Positions 60-7,433 of a DNA stretch of 7,513 nucleotides are shown one piece after another. The position numbers and the translations under genes are program-made. Origin of the DNA: Escherichia phage RES-2009a; the sequence record GQ495225.1, one strand, 5' to 3'. The notes under the pieces are model-generated. The model saw nothing but the letters and a program-made list of their open reading frames with translations. It made no database searches and was not told where the DNA came from. The stretch's first letter is position 1. Every line of letters starts with the position of its first letter.

Positions 60-1640
60 ATGAGTGACGTTTTAGCCTGGGAGGAACTATCCCAATCAGA
101 GAAGCAAGCCATCAAACTTCTGTCTACGCATAACTTCGAAACATTCCTGCGAGTGTGGTTCTCCATCACTCAGGGGCAAAAGTATGTGTTGAACTGGCAT
201 CATAGATACCTATGCAGGATTGTTGATGAGATTATTAGCGGAGAGCGAAAGGATACAATCATAAACGTATCACCTGGCGCCGGTAAAACCGAGATCACAT
301 CAATTCACTTTCCAGTCTATAGCTACCTAAAGCTACCAAGGGTTCGCAACCTTAGCCTTTCATTCTCTGATAGTCTGGTTAAGCGAAACTCAAAGCGAGT
401 GAGGGACCTTATTAAATCAATGGAATTCCAGGAGCTATTCCCAAGCAAGTTCGGGACGTGTAAAGATGACGAGATTCAGGTGCTTGATGAATCAGGTAAG
501 GTTAGATTTGAGTCAATATCAAAGGCCATTGGAGGGCAAATAACCGGATCAAGGGGTGGTTACATCACGGACACTTATAGCGGCTGCATCATGCTCGATG
601 ACGTTGATAAAGTTGATGATATGTTTAGTAAAGTTAGACGTGAAGCGGTGCACATGCTCCTGAAGAACACGATACGCTCTCGTCGCGCAAGTTCGGTAAA
701 GGGAAAGGCAACACCAATTATTTCCATACAGCAGCGATTGCATGTTAACGATAGCTCCTGGTTCATGTCTGAATCTGGGGGTATGGGTATAGATTTCGAT
801 GTTGTGAAGATTCCAGCGATAGTTACTGAGGATTACATCGACACGCTTCCTGACTGGTTAAAACCACACTTTGAGGCCGACGTACTATCAGCTGAGTACA
901 TTGAGCGAGATGGCGTTAAATACTACAGCTACTACCCGCAGAAGGAATCCATTCATGATTTAATGGCTATGCAAGACGCAGACCCATATACGTTCCTTAG
1001 TCAATATCAGCAGGAGCCAGTAGCACTAGGTGGCAACCTGATCAACGTAGATTGGTTCCAGCGAATCAGTGATACGTTCAGACCTCCAGCTAAATACGAT
1101 TATAGATTCATAACTTGCGATACTGCGATGACAACAAAGAGTTATAGTGACTTCTCTGTACTTCAGTTGTGGGGGTATAAGGATGCTAAGATTTACCTGA
1201 TAGACCAGCGCAGGGGTAAATGGGAGGCTCCAGAATTAGAGGCTGAATTACTTGACTTCGAGAAGAAATCAAGGGCAACCAGTCAGTCAGATGGCATCCT
1301 CCGAAAGATCATTATCGAGAAGAAAGCCTCTGGTATCGGCCTGATTCAATCGGCAGGCAGGGTAATGCGAACTCCGATAGAGCCATACGTTCCGGATAAC
1401 GACAAGCTGACTCGCGTAATGAGCGCATTGCCACAGATCAAGGCTGGTAACGTCGTCCTTCCAGAGTCAGGGCCGTGGCTAAGCGGATTGCTTACTGAGG
1501 TTGCAGCCTTTACGGCAGATGACTCGCATAAGCACGATGACCAAATTGACTGTCTAACAATGGCGGTAAACCTTGTTCTCAATATCGCAGATGACCCCAA
1601 AGCCCGACTAATGCGCATAGCGGGAATTAAACAGCCGTGA
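60..1640 (+). CDS. Terminase large subunit (ATPase plus nuclease)
   Basis: 526-aa ORF with ATG at 60 and SD-like AAGAGGG 7 nt upstream. Walker A-like VSPGAGKTE (nt ~274-291), Walker B-like CIMLDDVD, and C-terminal acidic motifs (FITCDTA, HDDQIDC) consistent with an RNase H-like terminase nuclease. Sits directly upstream of a portal-sized gene. Confidence 0.88.
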   Translation: MSDVLAWEELSQSEKQAIKLLSTHNFETFLRVWFSITQGQKYVLNWHHRYLCRIVDEIISGERKDTIINVSPGAGKTEITSIHFPVYSYLKLPRVRNLSLSFSDSLVKRNSKRVRDLIKSMEFQELFPSKFGTCKDDEIQVLDESGKVRFESISKAIGGQITGSRGGYITDTYSGCIMLDDVDKVDDMFSKVRREAVHMLLKNTIRSRRASSVKGKATPIISIQQRLHVNDSSWFMSESGGMGIDFDVVKIPAIVTEDYIDTLPDWLKPHFEADVLSAEYIERDGVKYYSYYPQKESIHDLMAMQDADPYTFLSQYQQEPVALGGNLINVDWFQRISDTFRPPAKYDYRFITCDTAMTTKSYSDFSVLQLWGYKDAKIYLIDQRRGKWEAPELEAELLDFEKKSRATSQSDGILRKIIIEKKASGIGLIQSAGRVMRTPIEPYVPDNDKLTRVMSALPQIKAGNVVLPESGPWLSGLLTEVAAFTADDSHKHDDQIDCLTMAVNLVLNIADDPKARLMRIAGIKQP

Positions 1641-1670: not shown

Positions 1671-1682
1671 TTGGAGAAAAAC

Positions 1683-2951
1683 ATGGTCAAGACAGACAGC
1701 TACGCCAATATATTCCTAGGCGGCAGTGATGGTAGTGAGATTTACGGGAGCTTGCAGAATCAGGCACCGACAATTCTGGCTTCGCTTTATGCGGATAATG
1801 CGCTGGTGCGTCGAATCGTTGACACAGTCCCGGAAACAGCACTAGCGGCAGGGTTCCACATTGATGGCATTGATGATGAACCTGCATTCTGGTCGCGTTG
1901 GGATGATTTGGAAATGACGAAGAATATTAACGACGCTTGGGCATGGGCGAGATTATTCGGTGGTTCAGCCATTGTTGCTATCGTTAAGGACAATAGAGCG
2001 CTAACAAGTCCGGTCAGAGAAGGTGCTGAGCTTGAAACGGTTCGCGTTTACGACCGTACACAAGTAGAAGTACAAACTCGCGAGGAGAATCCACGTAACG
2101 CACGTTTTGGTAAGCCGTTAACCTATCGCATCACCACTAACGAAAGCGATATGTTCTATGACGTGCACTACAGCAGAATTCATATCATCGATGGCGAGCG
2201 AATCCCTAACGTAATGCGTCAACAGAATGACGGATGGGGCCGCAGCGTTCTATCCAGTGACATTCTTGACTCAATCAAGGATTACACCAACTGCGAACGA
2301 CTTGCTACGCAGTTACTGAAGCGCAAGCAGCAGGCGGTGTGGAAAGTCAAAGATCTGGCTGAGTTGTGTGACGATAGTGAGGGATTTGGTGCCGCAAGGT
2401 TGCGCCTAGCACAGGTTGATAACAATAGTGGCGTTGGTCAGGCGATTGGTATTGACGCGGAGTCTGAAGAGTACAGCGTTCTAAACTCTGATATTGGTGG
2501 TATTGATGCGTTCCTGGATAAGAAGTTTGACAGAATCGTTGCTCTGAGCGGTATTCATGAAATCATCCTGAAGAACAAGAACGTTGGTGGCGTGTCATCA
2601 AGCCAGAATACGGCACTGGAGACATTCCATAAGCTAGTTGACCGCAAGCGTAACTCAGAACTGCTGCCTATTCTTGAGTTCTTAATCCAGTTCATAGTTA
2701 ACGTTGACGAATGGTCGGTTGAGTTTAATCCCTTAGCTCAGGAATCAAGCAAGGACAAAGCGGAGATTCTGGAGAAGAACGTAAGCAGCATCGCGACGCT
2801 AATTGCATCTGGCGCTATGGATATTGATGAGGCTAGAGATACATTGCGTACAATCGCTCCAGAGGTTAAGATTAGTGACGGTTCAGTAGAGACAGAGGTG
2901 ACAATTAGTGAAACCAGTAACGACCCGCTGGAAGTATCCGCAGACAATTGA
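1683..2951 (+). CDS. Portal protein (putative)
   Basis: About 422 aa, immediately after the terminase and before a Mu F-like gene, which is the canonical position. The ORF-track start at 1671 is TTG; ATG at 1683 with GGAG at 1673-1676 (6-nt spacer) is the better start. Stop TGA at 2949-2951. Confidence 0.72.
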   Translation: MVKTDSYANIFLGGSDGSEIYGSLQNQAPTILASLYADNALVRRIVDTVPETALAAGFHIDGIDDEPAFWSRWDDLEMTKNINDAWAWARLFGGSAIVAIVKDNRALTSPVREGAELETVRVYDRTQVEVQTREENPRNARFGKPLTYRITTNESDMFYDVHYSRIHIIDGERIPNVMRQQNDGWGRSVLSSDILDSIKDYTNCERLATQLLKRKQQAVWKVKDLAELCDDSEGFGAARLRLAQVDNNSGVGQAIGIDAESEEYSVLNSDIGGIDAFLDKKFDRIVALSGIHEIILKNKNVGGVSSSQNTALETFHKLVDRKRNSELLPILEFLIQFIVNVDEWSVEFNPLAQESSKDKAEILEKNVSSIATLIASGAMDIDEARDTLRTIAPEVKISDGSVETEVTISETSNDPLEVSADN

Positions 2952-3636
2952 GAGCCAAGTTAACCGCAATCTCAGTATTGCGGTAACTGAGTTAATTTCA
3001 GCAATGAAGGAGTCAGCAACAAGGCTTAAAATTGATACTGCAGAGGAGCTGGAGGAGGAGGATGGATACCTTGACGGGATAATTGCGGCGCTGGTGGCTT
3101 CGTTTATATCTACAATCCCAGCCATAGGTGCAGCGATATACAGATACAATAGCTCACAATTTCTTGTGATTGCAATCAAAACTGGCGGTAGGTCAAAACC
3201 TAGCGTTCTAGACCTTGAAGTTAATGGCATCAATGGCGATGAGCCGTGGTATAATGATGACATTAATCAGTGGGTTTACACCACAAGCAAGTCAGCTATT
3301 AAATTGCTGAATAACATTAAAGATGACTTTATTCAAACGGCATCAACAGCACAGAATGGTGACTACGTTAAGTTATCAGGTAGGTACAAAACATACAGGA
3401 AGCGAACGGCAAACATCGCATCTGGGATTGTGTCAAGCCTAAACTCTACACTTATGAGGCGTAGGCTAGAGGATGCTGGCGTTAGCCGTTACATCTGGCA
3501 TGGTATGCTAGACGAAAGGGAGCGGCAATCACACATAGTAAGAGAAGGGCTTAGCTTTAAACTTGGTGGTAACGATATATTTCCAGGTCAAGAATACGGT
3601 TGCCGTTGCTGGTCGGTTCCAGATTGGGAATCATAA
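2908..3636 (+). CDS. Minor head / head morphogenesis protein, phage Mu F-like (SPP1 gp7-like) family
   Basis: C-terminal region WHGMLDERERQSHIVREGL...PGQEYGCRCWSVPDW matches the conserved W..DER.R..H......CRC signature I recall for Mu F-like proteins. GTG start at 2908 has a good SD (AGAGGTG, 8-nt spacer) and overlaps the portal gene by 44 nt. The alternative in-frame ATG at 3004 lacks an SD. Confidence 0.78.
   Translation: MKPVTTRWKYPQTIESQVNRNLSIAVTELISAMKESATRLKIDTAEELEEEDGYLDGIIAALVASFISTIPAIGAAIYRYNSSQFLVIAIKTGGRSKPSVLDLEVNGINGDEPWYNDDINQWVYTTSKSAIKLLNNIKDDFIQTASTAQNGDYVKLSGRYKTYRKRTANIASGIVSSLNSTLMRRRLEDAGVSRYIWHGMLDERERQSHIVREGLSFKLGGNDIFPGQEYGCRCWSVPDWES
3090..3097 (+). other. Chi octamer GCTGGTGG (RecBCD recombination hotspot motif)
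   Basis: Exact 8-mer on the + strand, inside the Mu F-like gene; it is not aligned to codon position 1, unlike the other two copies. Confidence 0.6.
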
Positions 3637-3648
3637 CAGGAGAATTAA

Positions 3649-4740
3649 ATGAGCAAAATCCGCTATGACAGCGCAAAAGTAAAAGCACGATTCGATGAGA
3701 ACGGATTTCTCGTCGACACGCCAGTAGTTGCTCGCGTGGGTGTTCAGACTTACATCACACCAGACGGCAAGGAGCGCCGCGAGTTTCGCCCAGCAAGAGA
3801 GGTATTTAAGGCTGAATCACTCGCAAGCTATCAGGGTAAGCCGGTGACCTTCGGGCATGTCACTGTCAACTCGGATAACGCCAGGGGCGTTGTTGTTGGT
3901 GCGGTTTCCGGATCAGGTGAGCGCAGTGATGCGGCAGTTGTTGTTCCGCTAACCATTTATGACAAAGAGGCTATCGAAGCGGCTAAGGCAGGTCGCGCTG
4001 GTGAGTTGTCGGTTGGCTACACGACCGAGGATGTTAACATAGCAGGTTGGGGTAGCAATGAAACTGGTGAATATAAGCTCGATGGTGAATATGAATCGCA
4101 AGATGACATCCCACCTGAGTGGGTTCGCTTTGATGCGCTACAAACCAACATTGTAGTTAATCATGTTGCACTGGTATATAAAGGTCGCGCAGGGGTAGCA
4201 AAGTTAAATTTTGACGCTCAACAGGAAAACCCGTATACTACTGACGTTGATATCAATAAAGAGGATAAACAGGAAATGACAGTTAAAATTAAACTCGACA
4301 GCGCGCAGGAATTTGAAGTCGCACCGGAAATCGCTTCTCACATCGAAGCACTGAACGCAAAGGCTGACACCGCAATCGCAGAGCGTGATGCACTGAAAGC
4401 TAAAGTACATGCAATGCCTGCTGAAATCGAGGCCGCAGTTGCTAAAGCGAAAGCTGATGCTGATGCCCTAGCTGCCCTGGTTGCTGTTGCTGCTGAAGCT
4501 GGTGTAAAAGCTGATGGCCTGGATGCTAAAGGCATTAAAGTTGCCTACGTTAAAGAAATCTCCGGCCTTGATGTTTCAGAGAAATCCGACGCTTACATCG
4601 ACGCAGCCTTCGACATTGCCAAAGAATCTGATAAAATGGCTGAAGTACGAAAAGCGACTACCGCTTACGACAGATCTGACAGCGCCGATGAGCCTAAGAA
4701 ATTAGACCCTCGCGCTCGTTTAGCTAAAATTAAGAAATAA
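3649..4740 (+). CDS. Scaffolding-type protein: N-terminal globular domain plus C-terminal Ala/Lys/Asp/Glu-rich predicted helical region (possible protease-scaffold fusion)
   Basis: 363 aa, ATG 3649 with AGGAGA 5 nt upstream. Located between the minor head protein and the capsid gene. The C-terminal half (from about nt 4270) is low-complexity and charged, e.g. AEIEAAVAKAKADADALAALVAVAAEAG, which is typical of scaffold coiled-coils. The N-terminal roughly 190 aa looks globular and resembles, from memory, an uncharacterised domain family found at this position in siphovirus head modules. Confidence 0.6.
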   Translation: MSKIRYDSAKVKARFDENGFLVDTPVVARVGVQTYITPDGKERREFRPAREVFKAESLASYQGKPVTFGHVTVNSDNARGVVVGAVSGSGERSDAAVVVPLTIYDKEAIEAAKAGRAGELSVGYTTEDVNIAGWGSNETGEYKLDGEYESQDDIPPEWVRFDALQTNIVVNHVALVYKGRAGVAKLNFDAQQENPYTTDVDINKEDKQEMTVKIKLDSAQEFEVAPEIASHIEALNAKADTAIAERDALKAKVHAMPAEIEAAVAKAKADADALAALVAVAAEAGVKADGLDAKGIKVAYVKEISGLDVSEKSDAYIDAAFDIAKESDKMAEVRKATTAYDRSDSADEPKKLDPRARLAKIKK

Positions 4741-4752
4741 GGAGTTATAAAC

Positions 4753-5226
4753 ATGGCAATTCGTTCCGTAGCACTGGCTGGTATGATTTCTGATACTTCG
4801 CTCCATAACATCGACGGCGCATGTGTGGTTGGCGGCGCAACGGCAATCCCTGTCGGCACTGTTGTTAAGTTTTCAACCGCTCAGCCTGTAGATGGGAATA
4901 AGATTGTGGAAGCAACTGGCCTAGTTACCGGTAATGCTCTTGGTGTAGTTGTTCGATCTCACTACGAGACTGCGGATGGAACTGCTCGCGTAAATGAAGC
5001 GGTTAACGTAATGACTCACGGTCGAATCTGGGTTCGCTCAAGCCTTACTTCTGCACCAACGTTTGGCGCCCCAGTTCTGGTATCTGCCACTGGATTGGTT
5101 GAAGATTCGGGTGCGGTTGACACTGGATGGACTTTTGCGGGTGGTTACATCAAAAACACTGGCACAGACCCGCAAGACCTTAGCGTAGATGGCGCGCTGG
5201 TTGAGGTTCAGGTTAAGCAAAAGTAA
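4753..5226 (+). CDS. Small structural protein, Gly/Val/Ala/Thr-rich (candidate capsid decoration / cement protein)
   Basis: 157 aa, ATG 4753 with AAGGAG 8 nt upstream overlapping the previous stop. Composition suggests a beta-rich protein. It lies immediately upstream of the major capsid gene and is followed by a strong terminator. Function is inferred from position and composition only. Confidence 0.55.
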   Translation: MAIRSVALAGMISDTSLHNIDGACVVGGATAIPVGTVVKFSTAQPVDGNKIVEATGLVTGNALGVVVRSHYETADGTARVNEAVNVMTHGRIWVRSSLTSAPTFGAPVLVSATGLVEDSGAVDTGWTFAGGYIKNTGTDPQDLSVDGALVEVQVKQK

Positions 5227-5244: not shown

Positions 5245-5267
5245 AGCCTCCTTCGGGAGGTTTTTTT
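5245..5267 (+). terminator. Rho-independent terminator (UUCG tetraloop)
   Basis: CCTCC (5247-5251), loop TTCG (5252-5255), GGAGG (5256-5260), extendable by flanking A-T pairs, then T7 run 5261-5267. Starts 19 nt after the stop of the 157-aa gene. Confidence 0.75.
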
Positions 5268-5273
5268 ATACCA

Positions 5274-5301
5274 TTGCGTGGGCTAAAAACTCGTGTATAA
5301 T
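5274..5301 (+). promoter_or_regulatory. Sigma70-like promoter candidate upstream of the major capsid gene
   Basis: -35 TTGCGT (5274-5279), 16-bp spacer, consensus -10 TATAAT (5296-5301). Predicted start about 5308, giving a roughly 32-nt leader with AAGGA at 5325-5329 before ATG 5340. Confidence 0.5.
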
Positions 5302-5339
5302 GAATCCGTAGACACCTAACTGAAAAGGAACAATAAAGA

Positions 5340-6284
5340 ATGGCCATTAAATTTGATGCAGAACAAGCAAAAATCACTGCTCACCTAGAGCAAATGGGCG
5401 TAGATAAGGCTGATGCCGCTGGTATCTGGACCGTTAGCCAGCTTACCGCTTCTCTGAAGCGTGCTTACGAAAAAGAATATTCAGACAACTCCGTTGTTAA
5501 TATCTTCCCTGTAACCAATGAAATCCCTGGTCACGCGAAGTATTTCGAATACCCAGAGTTTGATGGTGTTGGAATTGCTCAGATTATCGCTGATTACTCT
5601 GACGACCTGCCGCTGGTTGATGCCTTCATGACTGAGAAGCAAGGTAAAGTGTTCCGTTTCGGTAACGCATTCCTGATCTCCACTGATGAAATTAAAGCAG
5701 GCGCAGCTACTGGTCAGTCACTGTCGACTCGCAAACAGGCCCTGGCTTTCGAAGCACACGACAACCTGCTGGATAAACTGGTTTGGTCCGGTTCCTCTCC
5801 GCACGGTATCGTAAGCGTATTCGATCAGCCGAACATCAACAACGTTGTTGCCACTCCAAACTGGAGCGTCCCGCAGAACGCGATTGATGACGTCACTGCG
5901 ATGATTGATGCGGTTGAGAGCTCAACTCAGGGCCTACATCATGTAACTGACATTCTGCTTCCGGCTTCCGCTCGTCGAGTAATGCAGGGACTGGTTCCGC
6001 AGACAAACCTGAGTTACGGCGAATTGTTCACTCGTAACAACCCGGGTCTGACTATTCGCTTTATGCAGATCCTGGATAACTACGATGGCGCTGGTGGTAA
6101 AGCCGCTCTGGCGTTTGAGAAGAGTCCACTCAATATGTCTATCGAGATTCCGGAAGCTACTAACGTTCTTCCGGCTCAACCTCGAGATCTGCATTTCCGC
6201 TACCCTGTAACATCAAAGGCTACGGGATTGATTGTATATCGCCCTCTTACGATGGCTGCAATCAAAGGCATCACCTTCGCGTGA
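5340..6284 (+). CDS. Major capsid protein (putative)
   Basis: 314 aa, size appropriate for a capsid protein, and follows the scaffold and small structural genes. It has its own promoter candidate and SD and is followed by a strong terminator, a layout consistent with a highly expressed structural gene. Sequence identity was not verified by search. Confidence 0.72.
   Translation: MAIKFDAEQAKITAHLEQMGVDKADAAGIWTVSQLTASLKRAYEKEYSDNSVVNIFPVTNEIPGHAKYFEYPEFDGVGIAQIIADYSDDLPLVDAFMTEKQGKVFRFGNAFLISTDEIKAGAATGQSLSTRKQALAFEAHDNLLDKLVWSGSSPHGIVSVFDQPNINNVVATPNWSVPQNAIDDVTAMIDAVESSTQGLHHVTDILLPASARRVMQGLVPQTNLSYGELFTRNNPGLTIRFMQILDNYDGAGGKAALAFEKSPLNMSIEIPEATNVLPAQPRDLHFRYPVTSKATGLIVYRPLTMAAIKGITFA
6090..6097 (+). 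other. Chi octamer GCTGGTGG
   Basis: Exact 8-mer on the + strand inside the capsid gene, encoding Ala-Gly-Gly in frame. Confidence 0.6.
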
Positions 6285-6376: not shown

Positions 6377-6622
6377 ATGATTCGTTTAGAACACACTGGC
6401 GCTTGCCTTATCGTTTACAAAGGTGATAAATATTTGCCTGGTGACACTTTCGAGGTTGATGTAATTTGCGACGGGCTCAAGCGTTTAATCGCAGAGGGTA
6501 AACTCACGATTGAGGGTGACACCAAAGCAACCAAACAGATCGCGCAGGAAATTGTTAGCAAGAAAAAGCGCAAAGAACCGAAAACCATCTCCGAAGCTGA
6601 GATTGGCAACGAGTACAAATAA
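6377..6622 (+). CDS. Hypothetical small protein, 81 aa, Lys-rich C-terminus
   Basis: ATG 6377 with AAGGAG (6365-6370) and a 6-nt spacer. No recognisable motif. Bracketed by hairpin terminators on both sides with a TATAAT box upstream. Confidence 0.65.
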   Translation: MIRLEHTGACLIVYKGDKYLPGDTFEVDVICDGLKRLIAEGKLTIEGDTKATKQIAQEIVSKKKRKEPKTISEAEIGNEYK

Positions 6623-6628
6623 CAAACA

Positions 6629-6650
6629 GGGCGCTTCGGCGTCCTTTATT
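6629..6650 (+). terminator. Terminator-like hairpin (UUCG tetraloop, weak U-tract)
   Basis: GGGCGC (6629-6634), loop TTCG (6635-6638), GCGTCC (6639-6644): 6-bp stem with one G-U pair, followed by TTTATT. The weaker T-run suggests partial termination or an RNA-stabilising hairpin. Confidence 0.45.
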
Positions 6651-6663
6651 GTATGGAGCTAAT

Positions 6664-7065
6664 ATGAATGATGCAATTTTGGCGTTTATGCGCTCGCTTG
6701 TTCCGGCGCTCAAAGCGGTGGATGACGAATCAATTAATGTATGGATTGATTTGGCACGTCTATACGTATGCGAAAGCAAATTTGGTGCAGACAAAGACAA
6801 GGCTGTCGGGCTTTATGCGCTACACCTGATGCTTGCTGATGGCGCATTTAAGGGTGAGAATGAAGGCCTGGAAACATACAGCCGTAGAATGGCAAGTTAT
6901 GCACTGAGCGGTGAATTCTCTATAACCTATGATAACCAATCAGCAATCCAGGGTGATTTATCATCTTCCTCCTGGGGTCGCATGTACAAGGCGCTTCTCC
7001 GCAAGAAAGGTGGCGGCTTTGGATTGATTACTTCCGCTGGTGGCGGTGGGTGCGGTTGCCGATGA
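6664..7065 (+). CDS. Putative head-tail adaptor / head completion protein
   Basis: 133 aa. The ORF-track start at 6649 is TTG; ATG at 6664 with TGGAG (6654-6658) and a 5-nt spacer is preferred. Size and position (first neck-type gene after the capsid gene) fit a connector, but the sequence is not confidently recognised. Unusual Gly-rich C-terminus GGGFGLITSAGGGGCGCR. Confidence 0.5.
   Translation: MNDAILAFMRSLVPALKAVDDESINVWIDLARLYVCESKFGADKDKAVGLYALHLMLADGAFKGENEGLETYSRRMASYALSGEFSITYDNQSAIQGDLSSSSWGRMYKALLRKKGGGFGLITSAGGGGCGCR
7036..7043 (+). other. Chi octamer GCTGGTGG
   Basis: Exact 8-mer on the + strand near the 3' end of the 133-aa gene, encoding Ala-Gly-Gly in frame. Confidence 0.6.
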
Positions 7066-7433
7066 ACTACAACGAAATCGAATCAATTACTCGCGCTGGC
7101 ATTAACTTCTTTAGTGATGCCAATGGCGTTTACGAGATGAGCACTGGCGCTGGATATGTTGAAATCGTTAACGGCGTTGAAGTGGAAGTGCCAGCGCAAA
7201 CATTCCAGCTAAAAGGATTGGTGCGAGAAATCAAGACGCGCGATATCGATGGCGAGTTTATCCAGTTTGGCGATAAGCGCGGAATCTTCACGGCTCAGAT
7301 TGAAATCAGGCAGGGTTATCAGATTAAAGTCGATGGTGAGACTTTTGTTGTTATTGACCCGCGGCCCGTTAAACCAACCGGAACAGTTGTTGGGTATAGA
7401 CCGATTCTTCGTAGGGTGGCTACTTATGGCTAG
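7062..7433 (+). CDS. Putative head closure / neck protein
   Basis: About 123 aa from ATG 7062, which overlaps the upstream stop as ATGA (a translational-coupling arrangement). In-frame GTG 7050 and TTG 7056 are alternative starts. Composition suggests a beta-rich small protein; function is inferred from position after the adaptor-like gene. Confidence 0.5.
   Translation: MNYNEIESITRAGINFFSDANGVYEMSTGAGYVEIVNGVEVEVPAQTFQLKGLVREIKTRDIDGEFIQFGDKRGIFTAQIEIRQGYQIKVDGETFVVIDPRPVKPTGTVVGYRPILRRVATYG

Follow-up and report, generated by a model that had tools for sequence, protein, structure and literature searches.

The DNA analysed here (hereafter the window) comprises 7,513 nucleotides of Escherichia phage RES-2009a (GQ495225.1). 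It carries a run of head genes in the order terminase, portal, Mu-F-like, the open reading frame (ORF) at 3649-4740, cement, and major capsid, all encoded on the + strand (Table 1). The ORF at 3649-4740, with which this report is concerned, is a genuine gene. An AGGAG motif lies 8 nt 5' of its start codon, and its product matches PF09979 (DUF2213, alternatively labelled Pa193_gp24; Pfam E = 8.9e-30, score 104 bits, cut-off 22 bits) and, over aa 2-362, phrog_530 (E = 2.2e-106). The listed GTG start of the preceding Mu-F-like gene creates a 44-nt overlap with the portal gene (2908-2951), and the real start of that gene may lie downstream.

The phages nearest to the window are T1-like Drexlerviridae (among them AugustePiccard, JeanPiccard, BEK2, CEB_EC3a, ACG-M12, and T1), and the head module of the window is of the T1-like (Drexlerviridae) siphophage type. 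The corresponding genes of the relatives, 76-83% identical in DNA, are labelled 'prohead protease', 'head maturation protease', or 'capsid and scaffold protein'; the homologues of Bas01 and Bas02 are ~83% identical in DNA and 87-88% identical in protein. Additionally, 6470 clusters (50% identity) of a representative protein library match the N-terminal domain at E <= 0.001.

A protease-scaffold fusion is already annotated and published for such genes, and the gene is in this respect an ordinary T1-like head gene. Richmond-Buccola et al. report a 'scaffolding prohead protease' of Drexlerviridae, in which a protease at the N-terminus is joined to a helical scaffold at the C-terminus, and tie it to CBASS sensing and escape mutations (bioRxiv 10.1101/2023.05.21.541620). 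ORF5 of Bas11 and Bas13 has the same gene family, genome position, and Ser121 architecture as the gene of the window.

Table 1. Genes and features of the window, with positions counted from its first nucleotide
Feature	Position	Strand	Remarks
Large terminase	60-1640	+	
Portal	1671-2951	+	PF06381
Mu-F-like head protein	2908-3636	+	
Protease-scaffold fusion gene (very probable)	3649..4740	+	363 aa, ATG 3649 to TAA 4740; PF09979, phrog_530 'head maturation protease'
Putative protease domain, aa 10-190	3676..4218	+	Predicted assemblin / T4 gp21-like fold
His70 codon (CAT), candidate catalytic histidine	3856..3858	+	His in 136/137 members
Ser121 codon (TCG), candidate catalytic nucleophile	4009..4011	+	Ser in 137/137 members
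His172 codon (CAT), candidate third triad member	4162..4164	+	His in 136/137 members
Variable disordered linker, aa 191-209	4219..4275	+	pLDDT <50 at aa 192-208
Proposed nested in-frame scaffold-only gene, Met210-Lys363	4276..4740	+	154 aa; conserved ATG and Shine-Dalgarno motif
Ala-rich amphipathic helix, aa 226-283	4324..4497	+	~8 heptads; AlphaFold2 pLDDT >90; covers most of the GCT/GAT-rich stretch
Conserved loop G-V-K-A-D-G-L-D, aa 284-292	4498..4524	+	K-x-D; candidate internal cleavage site between AlphaFold2 helices
Helix-loop-helix (helix 293-305, loop, helix 314-338)	4525..4662	+	Candidate capsid-binding module; AlphaFold2
Cement protein	4753-5226	+	PF22758
Major capsid protein	5340-6284	+	PF09950
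K23-A24-D25 in major capsid protein	5406..5414	+	Predicted maturation cleavage after Asp25, GVDKAD/AAGIW (slash: cut)
DUF7444	6377-6622	+	
DUF4054	6649-7065	+	
Head-closure protein	7050-7433	+	

A two-part protein

An earlier note on this DNA had read the protein as two parts, a folded N-terminal domain of about 190 residues followed by a charged, Ala-rich half. Composition agrees with that division, Ala making up 11% of aa 1-190 and 33% of aa 216-300, and charged residues 44% of aa 301-363. So does the AlphaFold2 model, which was built with 137 diverse relatives (28-57% identical to the query in the family alignment) and has a mean pLDDT of 89: it is confidently globular at aa 10-190, where pLDDT by block is mostly >93, and mostly helical in the C-terminal part.

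The note had further described a GCT/GAT codon-repeat stretch at 4414-4533 (aa 256-295) that might be prone to slippage and to length variation between isolates. The composition is as described, with 11 GCT and 4 GAT among the 40 codons; GCT accounts for 11/16 Ala codons (69%), compared with 33% in the remaining gene (Fisher p = 0.018). The stretch is not, however, a DNA repeat. Tandem Repeats Finder returned no tandem repeat within it, and the repeat search yielded, besides imperfect 20-mers, a single exact 10-nt pair (AAAGCTGATG) whose two copies are 57 nt apart. The GCT bias arises because the stretch codes for much Ala and Asp and because the Ala codon concerned is also preferred in the major capsid gene, where it makes up 47% of Ala codons.

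A contingency repeat that alters tail length between isolates by slippage could be argued from the local GCT enrichment and from the one exact direct-repeat pair. Yet among 120 relatives (75-98% identity), aa 256-295 are free of indels, and conservation is highest in the C-terminal half, with column identity of 0.92-0.97 as against 0.70-0.90 in the N-domain. The sole sizeable indel among these relatives, located after aa 235, is exactly 7 residues long, i.e. one heptad unit. With neither a tandem repeat nor indels in the 120 relatives, the slippage idea lacks support, and we assign such a contingency repeat a negligible probability. Opposite the Ala-rich stretch, the - strand holds a 65-aa Ala/Ser-rich ORF (4338-4535), which seems to be a mirror effect of GCN-rich coding and not a gene.

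The N-terminal domain

The N-terminal domain is predicted to share the assemblin-type fold (herpesvirus assemblin, T4 gp21, HK97-type), although Foldseek comparison with the PDB gave weak E-values, the best being 0.04. Within this domain, Ser121 never varies in the family, and His70 and His172 almost never do; Asn171, next to His172, is kept in 130/137 members. The active-site order of herpesvirus assemblins is His-Ser-His, and His70-Ser121-His172, which matches it, would be a candidate triad of the same kind. For the Bas11 homologue, S121 is named as the catalytic residue in the published account (bioRxiv 10.1101/2023.05.21.541620).

Searches for a corresponding relationship at the level of sequence gave a different picture. 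With ten diverse members and E up to 10, Pfam returned DUF2213 alone and no peptidase family (S21, S77, S78, S80), and a search of NCBIfam matched nothing. A single-sequence search against solved structures produced chance matches only, and hhalign against T4 gp21, whether with the single sequence or with a 66-sequence alignment, gave no signal (probability <1%). Since there is no sequence-profile link to T4 gp21, the protease link rests on structure and not on sequence. The suggestion that the domain might belong with the prohead proteases is supported by the assemblin-type predicted fold and the retained candidate Ser and His residues, but not by any profile match to curated peptidase families. 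What speaks for a protease, with Ser121 as the likely nucleophile, is the fold together with residue conservation, the neighbouring head genes, and published work.

One relative with a solved structure was found with the family profile, Pa193 gp24 (PDB 9B40 chain G, E = 5e-26). Its N-domain is homologous to that of the window protein (PF09979, E = 2e-33), with matching Ser and His positions; it differs in length (478 aa), in a tail that is much longer and more acidic, and in that its authors did not call the protein a protease. Indeed, they name it merely a putative scaffolding protein. This naming, the use of 'capsid and scaffold protein' in several records, and the lack of a sequence-level match to curated peptidase families would all fit an N-domain that is inactive or has another role (e.g. 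portal or capsid binding), with an assemblin-like fold only and the capsid being processed by some other enzyme. We hold this to be very improbable and continue to treat the domain as a putative serine protease.

A 20-residue insertion specific to T1-like phages (aa 141-160; 4069-4128; EYKLDGEYESQDDIPPEWVR) is present in only ~15% of the family; it is modelled with high confidence within the putative protease domain and holds a K-x-D site. Naturally unfused proteins consisting of DUF2213 only (P0159, P0132, P0186) were considered and rejected, being accounted for by frameshifts or in-frame stops on short metagenome contigs.

The putative scaffold part

The putative protease domain is followed by a tail of at least 116 residues in all 137 representatives (median 207). 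In the AlphaFold2 model of the window protein, this part comprises a hairpin (aa 212-224), the long helix 226-283, and the two helices 293-305 and 314-338. Coiled-coil character, for which the earlier note had suggested looking in the C-terminus, is indicated by a heptad pattern in the 58-residue helix, where a single register places 9/13 large hydrophobic residues at a/d (p = 0.004). When the same helix was examined by Fourier analysis for a 3.5-residue period, the result was not significant (p = 0.11) because Ala is found everywhere in it. The 7-residue indel of the relatives preserves the heptad register.

Beyond the long helix, the loop motif G[VI]K.DGLD is shared by the T1-like relatives and by several that are more distant, with K287 standing within K.D in 15/15 T1-like representatives. 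The most conserved motif of the C-terminal part, LDxxxKSDAYIDAAFDIA (identity 0.96-0.97 among close relatives; family consensus LDGKSDxYxxAAFDxA), lies in the helix-loop-helix, which is followed by a basic tail. Scaffolds of the P22 gp8 / phi29 gp7 type are elongated, helical, oligomerising proteins in which a C-terminal helix-turn-helix binds the coat protein. A C-terminal helix-turn-helix of Pa193 gp24 (aa 286-326) is bound inside the capsid at the five-fold vertices (PDB 9B40). An attempt to map this element onto the window protein was abandoned as no sequence alignment of the C-terminal parts could be made, and the likeness between the two tails is therefore a topological analogy only.

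That the gene encodes a head-maturation protease fused to a scaffold, which the earlier note had raised as a possibility, is in our judgement very probable. The conserved Ser and His residues, the tail built of a heptad helix and a helix-loop-helix, and the helix-turn-helix of the solved homologue on the capsid interior all point to it, as do the N-terminal processing of T1-like capsid proteins and the same architecture in the Drexlerviridae publication.

A proposed internal start in the linker

In the linker between the two parts lie the first of the conserved K-x-D sites, K204-E-D206, and an SD-like (Shine-Dalgarno-like) word, GAGGA, at 4261-4265; the in-frame ATG 4276 (Met210) follows. In 33 DNA representatives with pairwise identity <85%, a Met stands 1-8 residues ahead of the hairpin motif without exception (33/33), encoded each time by ATG. 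At the protein level, the linker Met is present in 126/137 representatives, although the linker is otherwise unalignable across the family. The trimmed alignment (A2) was used for locus searching, the alternative (A1) being too gappy. Rfam had no match within the window.

An SD duplex energy of <= -4 kcal/mol is found at the internal ATG in 28/33 representatives, whereas the remaining in-frame positions reach it in 20% of cases and the remaining in-frame Met codons in 11%, bearing in mind that an acidic, purine-rich linker by itself favours SD-like words. The median energy at the internal ATG (-5.8) is close to that at annotated gene starts (-5.6). GAGGA stands 10 nt ahead of ATG 4276, a rather long spacing; in most T1-like relatives, it is 7 nt. 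Within the SD word, the codon of Glu205 is GAG in 33/34 sequences, whereas GAG is used for 42% elsewhere. The codons AAA GAG GAT (K204-E-D206) would apparently be put to double use, as a candidate K-x-D cleavage site and as the GAGGA ribosome-binding word.

Codon usage changes at about the same place. The codon adaptation index (CAI) rises from 0.351 in codons 1-209 to 0.515 in codons 210-363, the highest value in the window, compared with 0.472 for the capsid protein; the C-terminal part exceeds the N-terminal part in 15/15 T1-like representatives. A test that does without CAI weights, taking as references only the capsid gene of the window on one side and its terminase, portal, and Mu-F genes on the other, places a step at ~codon 200 (permutation p = 0.0006). 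Furthermore, aa 210 is exactly where the match to the profile phrog_36941 (162 positions) sets in, and in Pa193 gp24, too, the linker contains a Met preceded by an SD-like word.

These observations can be read in another way, namely that the gene yields a single 363-aa product from which the tail is freed by self-cleavage, as in P2 gpO, the linker Met and the purine words being incidental or related to cleavage. The published account describes one fusion protein and, so far as its accessible part extends, mentions neither an internal start nor a cleavage motif (bioRxiv 10.1101/2023.05.21.541620). Moreover, K-E-D lies four residues ahead of Met210, so selection at the protein level could explain part of the local conservation, and acidic linkers tend to give GAGGA-like words. 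Such selection does not, however, explain at the protein level the synonymous choice of GAG at Glu205, nor does a single product account for the retention of the Met in 33/33 representatives, for an SD strength equal to that of annotated starts and far above that of other in-frame Met codons, or for the codon-adaptation step at the Met. We regard a single product as rather unlikely. To judge from the sequence, a nested scaffold-only product is likely to be made from ATG 4276, and this 154-aa product, with codon usage taken as the proxy, is probably more abundant than the full-length protein.

In Salmonella phage 36 (L199, KR296690, 2187-2216), a 1-nt deletion relative to TLS splits the gene into ORFs of 201 aa and 161 aa, the latter starting at the conserved Met; the split may be a sequencing error. 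A sigma-70-like site (TTGACG, 17 nt, TATACT) is present at 4211-4239, 37 nt upstream of the internal ATG. It was rejected as an internal promoter, the number of sigma-70-like sites in the region being that expected by chance.

The K-x-D motif and capsid maturation

N-terminal residues are removed from the capsid proteins of TLS, T1, and Rogue1. Edman degradation of the TLS capsid protein gave ASDMGIW (PMC11447400), which is directly preceded by A-K-N-D in the TLS capsid gene. The model of the T1 capsid starts at Ala27 (PMC11945409), a residue preceded by V-K-Q-D. In all T1-like capsid N-termini extracted, K-x-D occurs a few residues ahead of a conserved GIW, and the predicted cleavage site of the window's own capsid protein (Table 1) is of this form.

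The same motif abounds in the scaffold parts. As the relatives are phylogenetically related, the z-scores and p-values that follow overstate independence: 15 T1-like representatives contain 136 K.D where 39 are expected (z = 17), and 18 distant ones contain 75 K.D where 33 are expected (z = 7.6) and 84 R.D where 19 are expected (z = 16.5); in the window, K.D is enriched only in the scaffold part of this protein, at 7 sites for an expectation of 2.4 (p = 0.004), and in none of the other proteins. The related patterns D.K, K.E, KD, and K..D are depleted in scaffold parts. Among the 15 T1-like representatives, the K.D sites at positions 204, 215, 238, 252, 268, 287, 312, and 342 are each shared by 11-15. 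In the window protein, predicted cuts would fall after Asp206, 217, 240, 270, 289, 314, and 353, and complete cutting at the sites of the scaffold part would give predicted fragments of 8-39 residues, and cutting at K204-E-D206 in the linker would release the protease domain. On balance, this pattern favours a head protease that cuts after K-x-D, which we put forward as a moderately probable specificity.

A proposed assembly pathway and its known counterparts

We propose the following pathway. The N-terminal part (aa 10-190) would be a protease with Ser121 as nucleophile, its active site completed by His70 and His172. The scaffold part would consist of a hairpin, a 58-residue Ala-rich helix of coiled-coil type, and a helix-loop-helix with a basic tail. 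The full-length fusion would be made at a low level, and the 154-aa scaffold-only protein would be made at a high level from ATG 4276 with its own Shine-Dalgarno motif. By analogy with known systems, the scaffold would copolymerise with the capsid protein, and the common tail would bring a few copies of the protease into the procapsid. There, the protease would strip the first 25 residues from the capsid protein and cut the scaffold after K-x-D, yielding short peptides that would exit before DNA packaging. The account as a whole—a T1-like head serine protease fused to a scaffold, with two products and K-x-D maturation—seems to us quite probable.

Several characterised systems offer counterparts. 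In lambda C/Nu3, herpes simplex virus HSV-1 UL26/UL26.5, and HFTV1 gp17/gp17.5, a full-length protease with a scaffold tail is accompanied by an abundant scaffold-only protein arising from an in-frame internal start (bioRxiv 10.64898/2026.09.13.751334). The gene of the window would mirror this nested scheme, its internal start being deduced from the DNA. The HSV-1 protease also has the assemblin fold predicted for the N-domain of the window protein. The lambda protease belongs to a separate, ClpP/S49-like fold class. In P2, gpO is a self-processing polypeptide with a protease at its N-terminus and a scaffold at its C-terminus (bioRxiv 10.64898/2026.09.13.751334); likened to the gene of the window by description, it differs in having a single full-length product and no nested gene. 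In T4 (PDB 5JBL), the gp21 protease and the gp22 scaffold core are encoded by separate genes, whereas those of the window are fused; T4 gp21 has no detectable sequence similarity to the window protein, and the proposed K-x-D differs from the T4 motif.

Scope within the DUF2213 family

A limited literature search found no paper that gives a nested start or a K-x-D motif for the DUF2213 family. As far as our searches show, these two features are new for the family, yet both are instances of well-known schemes. The reading may extend to the family at large, in which DUF2213 genes would be nested two-product genes with a conserved internal ATG and the protease would recognise [K/R]-x-D; we consider the chances of this slightly better than even. 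Such an extension would span thousands of clusters of tailed phages, from T1-like siphophages to Pbunavirus myophages, and, if true, [K/R]-x-D should recur every ~20-30 residues of the scaffold and once near the N-terminus of the capsid protein.

Should the scaffold indeed be a separate nested product, genome records should give two proteins for the gene, and CBASS studies that treat the scaffold domain as the trigger would need to consider an abundant short form. Likewise, a defined K-x-D motif, if true, would make the mature termini of capsid proteins predictable and protease reporters designable for a very large phage family.

Surroundings of the capsid gene

The gap between the cement and capsid genes (5245-5305, + strand) contains a textbook intrinsic terminator, CCTCC-TTCG-GGAGG followed by seven T (5247-5267); the terminator scan gave the hairpin at 5247-5267 only in the reading of the - strand. 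After the terminator, TGTATAAT forms an extended -10 element ~40 nt upstream of the capsid ATG. With a terminator followed by such an element ahead of its ATG, the capsid gene may be served by its own promoter. Over its residues 1-314, the capsid protein itself matches chain C of PDB 9N01 / 9YIX (E = 6e-197); this chain is the capsid protein of phage ZL19, bound by the SeAvs7 immune sensor.
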